Of a DNA stretch of 36,938 bases, positions 10,995-13,374 are shown in pieces. The position numbers and the translations under genes are program-made. How positions within the stretch are numbered: the stretch's first letter is position 1; the number at the start of each line of letters is the position of its first letter. The DNA is from Thermoanaerobaculia bacterium (lineage in GTDB: Bacteria; Acidobacteriota; Thermoanaerobaculia; Gp7-AA8). Below the pieces are notes generated by a model. The model made no database searches. It was given only the letters and a program-made list of their open reading frames with translations, and was not told the origin of the DNA. Location: positions 1 through 36,938 of the forward strand of contig JADGOA010000002.1 of NCBI GenBank assembly GCA_017883215.1. Direction: 5' to 3'.

Positions 10995-11986
10995 ATCGTC
11001 TTTGCCTCAGCCAATAGCTTCTTCAGAGCAGTCTCAGTCTCGCTCTCGCCGGGGATGCAGAGCGTGATGTCCTTCGTTTCGCCGGCGGCGAGAGCGGCTG
11101 CGTAGCCTTCGCAGTCCCAGCCGCAGGCGGTGCAATCCGTCTGCGCCATCGCTGCGAACAGCTTGGCCTTCAGATCGACGCCCTTCGCCAGTTCCAGGCG
11201 CTGATCGAGGGCGAGGTGGGGATCGTGCCACGGAGCTTCGGCCGTCGGCCTGGCGGTATCGGCGACTGCCCCGGCCAGCTCGGGAGCCGGCTCCATCTGC
11301 GTCTTCCGGCCGTCGTACCCGGCGGGAATGCCGTACCCGTACTGGGTCCACTCGCCTTTGAAGATGTTGACGTTTTGCGGGGTTTTCCCCGTGGATCCGG
11401 CTTTCGGGCCGCCGCCATCGGGGAAGATCTCCGGGTAGATGGCCGCGCCGGTGTCGATTCCTCGAAGCGGAAAGTCCTTGCGCAGCGGGTGGCCGTTGAA
11501 GCCGTCCCACATCAGGATGCGCTCGAGGTTCGGATGGTTCGAAAACCCGACGCCGAACATGTCGAAGACTTCGCGCTCCTGCCAGTTCGCCGTCTTCCAC
11601 ACCGAGGACACCGAGGGGATCGGCGTCTTCGCGTCGGTGTAGACGCGCAGCCGCACGCGCACGTTCCTGTCGAACGAGTAGAGCACGTACGACACGCCGA
11701 AGCGGTCGCCCTTGTAACCGGGATAGGTCGAGTAATCGACGCCCGCGAGATCGACGAGGTAGTTGAAGCTGTCGTTCTTGAAGGCGCGCGCCACTTCGAC
11801 GATCTCGTCGCGGTCGGCGATGAGCGTGATCTCACCGGCGAATTCCTTGGCGTCGAGAATCGCGTAGGCGACTTTCTCGACCGTAGCGGAGACGAGCGGA
11901 TCCTGGCGAATCTCCTCTGCAGTCCGTCCCTTGGGCGCGGCCGCGGCAGGAGCGGCCGGGCGATGAGTACCTTCTTGTTCGGCCAT
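10991..11986 (-). CDS. nuoC: NADH-quinone oxidoreductase subunit C with a C-terminal RnfB-type 4-Cys Fe-S module
   Basis: The NuoC/30-kDa core ([25 protein letters not shown]) ends near aa 180. A roughly 90-aa linker follows, then [34 protein letters not shown] (CX2CX3CX17C) at about 10997-11173. Confidence 0.9.
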   Translation of the reverse strand: [331 protein letters not shown]

Positions 11987-12054
11987 GGGTGCGTTTCCGG
12001 GAGCTGAGTGCCGACCGCAGCGCCGGCTGCGGCGCTCGGAGGTCGAGATTCAGG

Positions 12055-13374
12055 CTAGGCGCCCTCGATCTCCTTTCCTGCTGCGGTCATCAGCTTCTTC
12101 AATTTGTCCTTCGTTTCTTCATCGCCGGGGACACAGAGGGAGATGTCCTTCGTGTCGCCCGTGACGAGCGCGTGCGCGTAGTCGTTGCAGTTGTCGTAGC
12201 CGCACGCTGCGCAATCGGTCTGCGAAAGCGCCTCGTAGAGCTGCTCCTGAAACTCGGCTGGCGACTGAGGCGCAGCCGCAGCCTGTGCAGCAGGAGCAGG
12301 CGCCGGAGCCGCAGCGGGCGCCGCGGCCGGTGTGGGCGCCGCAGCAGTGAGTGCACCCGACGGAGCCGGCGCCGGTTGTGCCGGCTTGTGCTCGGCGATG
12401 ATCTTGTCGAGGGATTCCTTGACTTCGGTGTCTCCGGGCACGCAAAGCGACGTGTCGGTCACCGCGCCGGTCGCCAGCGCGTGCGCGTAGTCCCTGCAGT
12501 TGTCGTAGCCGCATCCGGCGCAATCGGTCTGCGAGAGCACCTCGTACAGCTTCTCCTCGAATTGCTCGAGCGACCCGCCGGAAGAAGACGGAGCGGCTTG
12601 CGGCGCAGCGGGAGTCACCGGTTGCGGCGCGGCGATGGAAACCGGCGGCGGTGGCGCGACCGGCGCTGGTGCCGCCGGCGCTTCGAGGGCAGCCGGCGCG
12701 GCGCTCACTTCTGTCTTCACGACGGTTGGAGCTGCTTTCGGCTTCTCGACGGACGGCAGCGGCGTCCGCTTCACGCTGGAGATCGGCGCCGCACGGAGCT
12801 GCGCGCGCGCCTGCTCGGCCCTCAGCGCGGGACCTTCGTGCGCCGGCCTCACAGAATCGCGAACCGCGGCCCGCGCGAAGTCGTACGCCTCTCCTCCCTT
12901 CCGGAGGATGTGCATTTTCTGGATCTTCTTCTGCAACTCCATCAGCCCCCACATCAGGGCCTCGGGACGTGGAGGGCATCCGGGAATGTAGACGTCGACC
13001 GGAATGAGACGGTCGACGCCCTGCGTCACCGCGTACGTGTCGTACGGTCCGCCGCAGGTCGCACACGAGCCCATGGCGATGACCCACTTCGGCTCCGGCA
13101 TCTGATCCCAGAGGCGGCGGACGATCGGGGCCATCTTCTCCGTCACGGTTCCGGCCACGATCATCAGGTCGGCCTGACGCGGCGTCGACCGAAACACTTC
13201 CGCGCCGAATCGCGCCATGTCGTGACGCGGGTCGAGCACGGCCATCATCTCGATCGCGCAACAGGCCAGACCGAACTGCATCGGCCAGAGCGACGACTTG
13301 CGTGCCCAGTTGAAGAACTTGTCGACGGAAGTTGTGAGGACGTTGGAGTCGAAGCGATTCTCGATCAGACCCAT
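12055..13374 (-). CDS. nuoB: NADH-quinone oxidoreductase subunit B with two C-terminal RnfB-type 4-Cys Fe-S modules
   Basis: The NuoB/PSST core carries the N2 ligands ([21 protein letters not shown]) within aa 1-160. Pro/Ala-rich linkers then connect two repeats of SQTDCA(G/A)CGYDNC.DYAHAL.TG...D.SLCVPGD, at about 12388-12573 and 12073-12258. Total length is 439 aa, against about 160-220 aa for ordinary NuoB. Confidence 0.92.

Follow-up and report, generated by a model that had tools for sequence, protein, structure and literature searches.

We analyzed a stretch of DNA of 36,938 nucleotides (nt) from a Thermoanaerobaculia bacterium (GCA_017883215.1, contig JADGOA010000002.1, positions 1-36,938, forward strand), hereafter the window, which carries an operon for respiratory complex I. 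Two products of this operon are extended at their C-termini: NuoB ends in two, and NuoC in one, predicted iron-sulfur (Fe-S) modules with four Cys, of the Pfam family PF04060. Profile matches in other genomes placed such modules on NuoI as well; on this evidence, PF04060 modules are fused to three Q-module subunits (NuoB, NuoC, and NuoI) in at least two distant lineages. Judged from its recurrence, the fusion architecture is conserved and under selection. We consider it moderately likely that the modules act as covalently tethered ferredoxin surrogates of an 11-subunit complex I, ferrying electrons between its NuoI clusters and reductases in the cytoplasm.

Predicted Fe-S modules fused to NuoB and NuoC

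Eleven consecutive, colinear genes occupy the minus strand from 1599 to 13724, with the membrane arm genes nuoJ-N at 1599-7982, and all 11 Nuo products matched their own Pfam families well above the cut-offs (Table 1). The open reading frame (ORF) calls and these matches reproduced the gene order given in the initial annotation, nuoA-B-C-D-H-I-J-K-L-M-N with nothing between nuoD and nuoH. The end of nuoD (9793) and the start of nuoH (9722) are separated by ~70 nt, which leaves no room for nuoEFG, and the reported lack of nuoE/F/G in the operon was therefore upheld. The NuoE, NuoF, and NuoG families also had no match among the ORFs of the 36.9-kb window scanned with Pfam. NuoD contained the HPSTHG and YLHRG motifs and had no Cys in its C-terminus; no hydrogenase-type NiFe Cys pairs were seen in it, and its match to Pfam NiFeSe_Hases fell below the cut-off. 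Because NuoB retains the N2 ligands, NuoI has both of its cluster motifs, and NuoD shows its motifs without hydrogenase-type Cys pairs, the Q-module is of the complex I type. By its gene content, the operon encodes a complex I of the 11-subunit type that lacks the N-module.

The Pfam scan of NuoB (439 amino acids, aa) gave Oxidored_q6 (3e-29) followed by two stretches of PF04060 (6.8e-16; 58.1 bits against a cut-off of 23), which is the domain content that had been anticipated. It agreed with the earlier description of an intact PSST core with its N2 ligands (C38, C39, C104, and C133) followed by two four-Cys modules (B1, C285/288/293/311; B2, C388/391/396/414). Every NuoB cysteine outside the core sits in a CX2CX4CX17C module motif, and the region of module B2 from residue 375 to 434 also matched the NCBIfam models rnfB and NF004859. 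At the DNA level, B1 and B2 were 74% identical over 159 nt, which indicates that their duplication is old. In a search of Protein Data Bank (PDB) sequences, the match of NuoB to Thermus Nqo6 (7.8e-65) was stronger than that to cyanobacterial NdhK (2.6e-54).

The core and the first module had been described as separated by ~100 aa of Pro/Ala-rich linker. This description applied to residues ~204-266 but failed for residues ~155-203, which form a conserved extension that is not Pro/Ala-rich. The extension, which contains ...G[VI]KR, carried many invariant columns across 34 homologues and was kept even in NuoBs without any module. It is probably structured, and on the surface of the complex it may fix or guide the tether. 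An NdhK alignment that reached residue 199 had raised the idea of a kinship with the C-terminal extension of cyanobacterial NdhK; this idea was dropped, since the segment searched alone had no match among PDB sequences. The equivalent first linker of 50 homologous NuoBs was 55-83 aa long with a median Pro+Ala fraction of 0.44, and it was poorly conserved, in contrast to the invariant core, extension, and modules. In the AlphaFold2 (AF2) model of full-length NuoB, the modules had predicted local distance difference test (pLDDT) values of 84-95 and the linkers values below 50.

NuoC consists of a Complex1_30kDa core (1.2e-42, residues 57-176), a tether, and a C-terminal module with a marginal PF04060 match (2.1e-5; 24.6 bits against a cut-off of 23). 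The tail matched positions 57-144 of NF004859 far more strongly (E 1.7e-27), and the two matches together bear out the third module copy that had been noted at this C-terminus. NuoC has only four cysteines (C285/288/292/310), all of which belong to the module motif CX2CX3CX17C.

A search with NuoB returned 3086 matches, and 116 of the best 120 carried one module by motif; the remainder included proteins with two (P0001), three (P0002), and five modules (P0003). The module motif scan of species-representative genomes gave 288 confirmed matches; the best 79 loci came nearly all from metagenome-assembled genomes (MAGs) of Thermoanaerobaculia or Acidobacteriota. The gene order was common to ~70 species-representative genomes, and the series methyltransferase-nuoA-B-C-D-H-I-J-K-L-M-N was kept in related loci wherever the contig was long enough. 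In 67 of 68 related loci, no more than 149 nt separated nuoD from nuoH, the exception being a frameshift-ridden assembly, and nuoEFG stood between these two genes in none of the loci examined.

The number and position of the modules varied among these loci. Of 68 loci with complete NuoB and NuoC, 34 had one module on each subunit, 24 had modules on NuoB only, and 10 on NuoC only; a module-bearing NuoC was found in L003 and in 44 of the 68 species loci. Over all loci, NuoB carried 0, 1, 2, 3, or at least five modules and NuoC 0 or 1. The extremes were L001, with five modules on NuoB and none on NuoC, and the MAG BP6.bin107, with at least five on NuoB and one on NuoC. Assemblies were seen to break inside the module repeats of nuoB or nuoC, as between L005 and L007 of BP6.bin107, across which nuoB is split, and between L076 and L078 (SMAG_U14527). 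For this reason, the module counts of short-read MAGs are probably underestimates.

Such breakage is also the one observation that would favor an artefact, in which frameshifts, misassembly, or chance Cys motifs mimic a fusion. Against it, the same frames and fusions recurred in ~70 species-representative genomes and in hundreds of metagenomic proteins, and a 439-aa homologue with two modules and 92% identity to the window NuoB (P0001) was encoded on a 562-kb contig. The Pfam matches were significant, and the four Cys residues were kept in 129 of 129 modules of related loci. An artefactual origin is effectively refuted, and the concern about frameshift or misassembly attached to the initial annotation falls with it.

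Relatives and hosts of the module

All three window modules scored above the PF04060 gathering cut-off and shared with the 129 modules of related loci the pattern CX2CX3-4CX16-17C followed by xPG. The latter modules had a mean net charge of -7.4 over ~69 residues. Among PDB sequences, a profile built from 16 module sequences matched the RnfB [4Fe-4S] domain in 8ahx_B (4e-4), an alignment that paired all four Cys; it also matched a further RnfB (7zc6_B) at 0.012 and, weakly, the corrinoid Fe-S protein (CFeSP; 4djd_C) at 0.27. Isolated module B2 was folded by AF2 into a four-helix unit with a pLDDT of 88. The two NuoB modules together reached 82.8 bits on the rnfB subfamily model TIGR01944 (cut-off 68.7; 2.2e-23), so that automatic pipelines may label fragments RnfB, as in the case of P0121. 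No rnf genes were found in the window by Pfam scans, and no Fer4 domain follows the modules. The modules can be classed with neither RnfB nor CFeSP: an N-terminal membrane helix is missing, ferredoxin domains do not follow, and the gene context is not that of rnf or acs.

The closest relatives of the module are, by sequence comparison, the Fe-S regions of CysJ-like flavoproteins of the PRK06214 family rather than RnfB or CFeSP. The earlier designation of RnfB/CFeSP-type modules was thus right as to PF04060 membership and the four-Cys pattern but not as to the nearest relatives. A module profile search of 1.84 billion representative proteins gave 1712 clusters at E ≤1e-3 and 307 at E ≤1e-10. 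The best 150 clusters all matched PF04060; 43 also matched FAD_binding_1 and 15 NAD_binding_1 (many being fragments), while matches to Fer4 domains were seen in five, to Complex1_30kDa in two, and to Oxidored_q6 and NIR_SIR in one each. The flavoproteins among them correspond to NCBIfam NF004859 (PRK06214, 'sulfite reductase subunit alpha'), of which P0166 scored 625 bits against a cut-off of 432. The NuoC tail and the N-terminal region of P0166 were 47% identical in an ungapped alignment of 81 aa, and both contained a PWHD...ERM helix before the module. The matches of NuoC (96 bits) and NuoB (87.5 bits) to NF004859 were restricted to model positions 57-146, and Pfam detected no FAD or NAD domains in either protein. 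The modules, on this alignment coverage, share homology with the Fe-S region alone of PRK06214/NF004859 and are not full members of the family.

In the flavoproteins, the Fe-S module is followed by FAD_binding_1 and NAD_binding_1, an arrangement in which it appears to stand where CysJ has its flavodoxin-like FMN domain. In CysJ, this FMN domain is mobile and passes electrons one at a time between the haemoprotein and the FAD/NAD(P)H domain. The CysJ-like genes lay directly downstream of a siroheme NIR_SIR reductase in the two loci inspected (L004, 1-3344; L085, 1-3077). L004 also encodes an extra stand-alone module protein of 137 aa between the NIR_SIR and CysJ-like genes. Siroheme reductases and photosynthetic NDH-1 are classic ferredoxin-dependent enzymes, and the fusion of one module subfamily into both systems therefore deserves attention. 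Our literature search found no paper on the Fe-S region of the PRK06214 family.

Among the best 150 clusters, we also found NuoI-like proteins with C-terminal modules. Their genes stood in complete operons of the order nuoA-B-C-D-H-I*-J-K-L-M-N (the asterisk marking the fusion) in L084 (GC content 66%), L088 (GC content 40%), and L091-L093; in these operons NuoB and NuoC were of normal length and nuoEFG was absent. The fusion protein has ~400 aa and ends in two PF04060 modules. A search with one NuoI fusion gave 898 matches at E ≤1e-20, and 115 of the best 120 had two modules. The named hosts were MAGs of Myxococcales or Deltaproteobacteria (Myxococcota-type), and the NuoD proteins of L084 and L088 were just 46% identical to that of the window. 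These hosts may also have a canonical 14-subunit complex I.

Further module hosts were seen. P0150 is an orphan NuoI-like protein whose gene context gave no functional clue. The P0134 family (L086/L087, 10001-10678) comprises stand-alone Thermoanaerobaculia proteins of 225 aa with a Cys-rich N-terminal half and a C-terminal module of the PWHD type; its 90% cluster has 61 members, and its gene neighborhood was uninformative. In P0135, P0140, and P0143 (Planctomycetota-type, ~250 aa), the module is joined to a helical N-terminal domain of ~190 aa without a Pfam match, and P0160 (557 aa), of low sequence complexity, repeats a pair of PF04060 stretches three times, which gives six stretches in all.

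Candidate modes of electron input

Three carrier domains with one [4Fe-4S] cluster each, held by NuoB and NuoC on tethers that are long and flexible, would amount to built-in ferredoxins. An acidic module would be reduced by a low-potential cytoplasmic reductase, for which 2-oxoacid:ferredoxin oxidoreductases, hydrogenases, or an NAD(P)H-dependent FNR-type flavoprotein are candidates. Once reduced, the module would move across to N6a/N6b, the exposed clusters of NuoI, and hand over one electron, which would pass via N2 to quinone and drive proton pumping. We favor tethered carriers because the modules are small, acidic, and confidently predicted to fold, because the Pro/Ala linkers are long and unconserved, because the modules differ freely in number and in the subunit that anchors them, as carriers on tethers would, and because the modules are homologous to a domain at the ferredoxin/flavodoxin position and occur in operons without the usual input module. 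Ferredoxins are likewise acidic, and a Pro/Ala linker of ~60 residues is estimated to span well over the height of the Q-module, roughly 60-70 Å.

Beyond this, we tentatively put forward a distinct class of complex I, in which tethered [4Fe-4S] carriers of variable copy number would replace both the N-module and soluble ferredoxin as a swinging-arm input, on NuoB and NuoC in Thermoanaerobaculia and on NuoI in Myxococcales/Deltaproteobacteria MAGs. If this is true, the fusions would be 'Rosetta-stone' evidence that complex I of the 11-subunit kind is generally fed at NuoI by single-cluster ferredoxin-like carriers.

The modules could instead be a static adaptor or wire, permanently docked on the Q-module, that extends the Fe-S chain and offers a platform for a separately encoded dehydrogenase, NuoEFG-like or other; the complex would then not be self-contained, and the linkers would merely route the chain. 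The homologous domain of RnfB is fixed in the electron path of solved Rnf complexes, and the conserved post-core extension of NuoB could serve for docking. Moreover, some Thermoanaerobaculia MAGs, namely those of Ca. Sulfomarinibacter, have nuoE/F/G annotated at a separate locus beside another nuoA (PMC8528874, Supplementary Table 5). The same table lists a MAG, AM4, with eleven contiguous nuo genes and elsewhere only a lone 'F'. One fixed site is, however, hard to fit to a copy number ranging from 1 to at least five and to three anchors (NuoB, NuoC, and NuoI); the 55-83-aa Pro/Ala linkers are unconserved, and nuoEFG occurred in no operon examined. On these grounds, we regard a fixed adaptor as rather unlikely.

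Several points weigh against tethered carriers. We infer that the modules bind clusters and move, where on NuoI they dock, what donates the electrons, and which way these flow; no candidate reductase gene was found beside the operon in the window or in related loci. Low pLDDT in the linkers is weak evidence of disorder, since the NuoB core, which is known to be folded, also scored low on a shallow alignment. Foldseek with the AF2 module model found nothing with E <1 in the PDB; the family assignment of the module therefore rests on sequence profiles rather than on structural confirmation of an RnfB/CFeSP fold. The related loci were retrieved through the module motif, and the placement survey is biased accordingly: whether each operon of this type has a module, and how many have none, lies beyond its reach. 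The absence of nuoEFG was established for the operon and for the ORFs of the 36.9-kb window scanned with Pfam, and the separate nuoE/F/G locus in the table of PMC8528874 makes a trans-encoded N-module or a second complex I possible in this class.

Genomic setting and comparison with known systems

The operon is flanked by genes for other parts of energy conservation (Table 1). Upstream are two genes for OmpA-type lipoproteins and the H+-pyrophosphatase (H+-PPase), and complex I, ATP synthase, and H+-PPase form one conserved bioenergetic locus. The gene for an S-adenosylmethionine (SAM)-dependent methyltransferase resembling NDUFAF7/MidA was found at the same place in nearly every one of the ~70 related Thermoanaerobaculia loci. 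Mitochondrial NDUFAF7 methylates the NuoD homologue during complex I assembly, and the tight synteny suggests a conserved assembly role. The Ser/Thr protein kinase gene is followed by an Ala/Pro/Arg-rich ORF of ~460 aa without a Pfam match (the pair spans 19509-22456 on the minus strand). A conserved neighboring Pyr_redox_2/Pyr_redox_dim gene (23048-24478) was considered as the donor and set aside; it has a CxxxxC disulfide-reductase signature, and its linkage is variable.

This setting bears on the direction of electron flow. The proton-motive force might push electrons from quinol through the modules to enzymes that depend on ferredoxin, for instance the siroheme reductases of sulfite or nitrite. 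Complex I can in principle run in reverse, the closest homologues of the modules serve assimilatory NIR_SIR systems, and the Cu/Zn superoxide dismutase in the window hints at exposure to oxygen, which would fit a lifestyle in which low-potential reductant is scarce. Nevertheless, no acceptor enzyme linked to the operon was found in the related loci inspected, and an H+-PPase upstream with an ATP synthase downstream is a conserved setting typical of a forward respiratory enzyme. The characterized 11-subunit relatives, too, are all thought to run towards quinone (PMC11238625). We judge reverse flow to be improbable.

The modules might also have no part in catalytic transfer; they would then gate the complex by sensing oxygen or the redox state, or serve in assembly or cluster delivery. 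Exposed [4Fe-4S] clusters are oxygen-labile and serve as sensors elsewhere. The window encodes a ScdA/RIC-type 'repair of iron centres' protein and a Crp/Fnr-type regulator, a pair that may be relevant to an organism with exposed Fe-S modules; neither was seen linked to the nuo operon in other loci. Tandem arrays of 2 to at least five copies and placement on three different subunits would be needless for a sensor, and the nearest homologues hold the position of an electron carrier in CysJ-like reductases. A sensory or assembly role is accordingly very unlikely.

Table 1. Coordinates of the complex I genes, of the segments of NuoB and NuoC, and of neighboring genes in the window.
Feature	Position	Strand	Basis or remark
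ATP synthase subunits I and a, right after nuoN	245-1358	-	ATPase_gene1 also after nuoN in L001
nuoN	1599-3131	-	Pfam Proton_antipo_M
nuoM	3128-4789	-	Pfam Proton_antipo_M
nuoL	4793-6961	-	Pfam Proton_antipo_M
nuoK	7001-7303	-	Pfam Oxidored_q2
nuoJ	7296-7982	-	Pfam Oxidored_q3
nuoI, two CX2CX2CX3CP motifs (N6a/N6b) at aa 61 and 107	7979-8542	-	Pfam Fer4 families
nuoH, directly after nuoD	8517-9722	-	Pfam NADHdh, 5.3e-120
nuoD, 371 aa counted from ORF Met24	9793-10908	-	Pfam Complex1_49kDa, 2e-102; homologues 371 aa
nuoC, 331 aa, 30-kDa core, tether, and one predicted Fe-S module	10991-11986	-	Complex1_30kDa + PF04060
Module C with pre-module helix, aa 253-331, C285-X2-C288-X3-C292-X17-C310	10994-11230	-	PF04060; NF004859
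NuoC tether, aa 186-252	11231-11431	-	between Pfam core (57-176) and module
nuoB, 439 aa, PSST core and C-terminal arm with two predicted Fe-S modules	12055-13374	-	Oxidored_q6 + 2x PF04060
Module B2, aa 370-439, C388-X2-C391-X4-C396-X17-C414, net charge -7	12058-12267	-	PF04060, best stretch 385-416
NuoB linker 2, Pro/Ala, aa 332-369	12268-12381	-	78% Ala+Pro over aa 332-372; pLDDT <50
Module B1, aa 267-331, C285-X2-C288-X4-C293-X17-C311, net charge -8	12382-12576	-	PF04060; AF2 pLDDT 84-95
NuoB linker 1, Pro/Ala-rich, aa 204-266	12577-12765	-	composition; pLDDT <50
NuoB post-core extension, aa ~155-203, conserved, not Pro/Ala-rich	12766-12912	-	invariant columns, 34 homologues
NuoB core, aa 1-154, N2 ligands C38, C39, C104, C133	12913-13374	-	Pfam stretch 38-147; PDB NuoB/Nqo6/PSST matches down to 7.8e-65
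nuoA	13365-13724	-	Pfam Oxidored_q4, 6.4e-34
NDUFAF7/MidA-like SAM methyltransferase, immediately upstream of nuoA	13823-14962	-	Pfam Methyltransf_28, 3.9e-31
H+-PPase	16871-19381		
Ser/Thr protein kinase	20870-22456	-	
Cu/Zn superoxide dismutase	24873-25433	+	
Crp/Fnr-type regulator	29454-30167	-	
ScdA/RIC-type di-iron 'repair of iron centres' protein	30205-31158	+	ScdA_N + Hemerythrin

In public databases, these proteins are annotated as NuoB, NuoI, or '(Fe-S)-binding protein', or as RnfB in the case of fragments. As thousands of proteins bear no more than such labels, an NADH dehydrogenase may be assumed in error when the metabolism of Acidobacteriota and Myxococcota-type MAGs is reconstructed. 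The searchable literature, including a 2025 hidden Markov model survey of complex I variants (PMC12361115), contained no description of NuoB, NuoC, or NuoI fused to PF04060, in keeping with the initial statement that no complex I of this architecture has been characterized. The donor of the 11-subunit complex I is an open question; a low-potential one-electron carrier is presumed, and ferredoxin is the usual proposal (PMC11238625). The recurrent fusion to three Q-module subunits suggests what an N-module-less complex I accepts electrons from, and where. Truncations of the fusions and isolated modules offer test constructs for the donor question, which is open outside cyanobacteria (PMC11238625). 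If the arm is mobile, it would represent a new mode of electron input on a respiratory complex. We know of no characterized example of a multi-copy swinging Fe-S carrier arm on such a complex.

Likenesses to the proposed arm can be found in several tethered carriers that shuttle between donor and acceptor, such as the lipoyl domains of 2-oxoacid dehydrogenase E2, tandem acyl carrier proteins, membrane-anchored cytochrome c_y, and the FMN domain of diflavin reductases. The shared traits are a small domain, flexible Ala/Pro-rich linkers, and a variable number of tandem copies. The length and composition of the linkers, the variation in copy number, and the beads-on-a-string model from AF2 are consistent with this swinging-arm class. 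The comparison is an analogy of mechanism and not one of homology: here, the cofactor would be a [4Fe-4S] cluster and the host complex I.

At the level of the domain itself, RnfB/RsxB and CFeSP share the Pfam family and the four-Cys pattern with the modules but are more distant in sequence than the PRK06214 family. RnfB has a membrane anchor, 2x[4Fe-4S] ferredoxin domains, and an rnfABCDGE cluster, none of which accompanies the modules. PRK06214/NF004859 proteins, the nearest relatives with the common PWHD...ERM helix, carry a single module N-terminal to FAD_binding_1 and NAD_binding_1, whereas the modules described here are C-terminal, tandem, and attached to complex I subunits. With the known 11-subunit complex I, including cyanobacterial and chloroplast NDH-1, the operon shares the same 11 core genes, the position of nuoH right after nuoD, and intact ligands for N2 and N6a/N6b. 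In these known enzymes the carrier is a ferredoxin or flavodoxin in solution, and some have additional subunits, for example NdhS/V/O or Campylobacter NuoX/Y. In the operons described here, by contrast, the putative carrier is covalently fused, in variable copies, to NuoB and NuoC or to NuoI.

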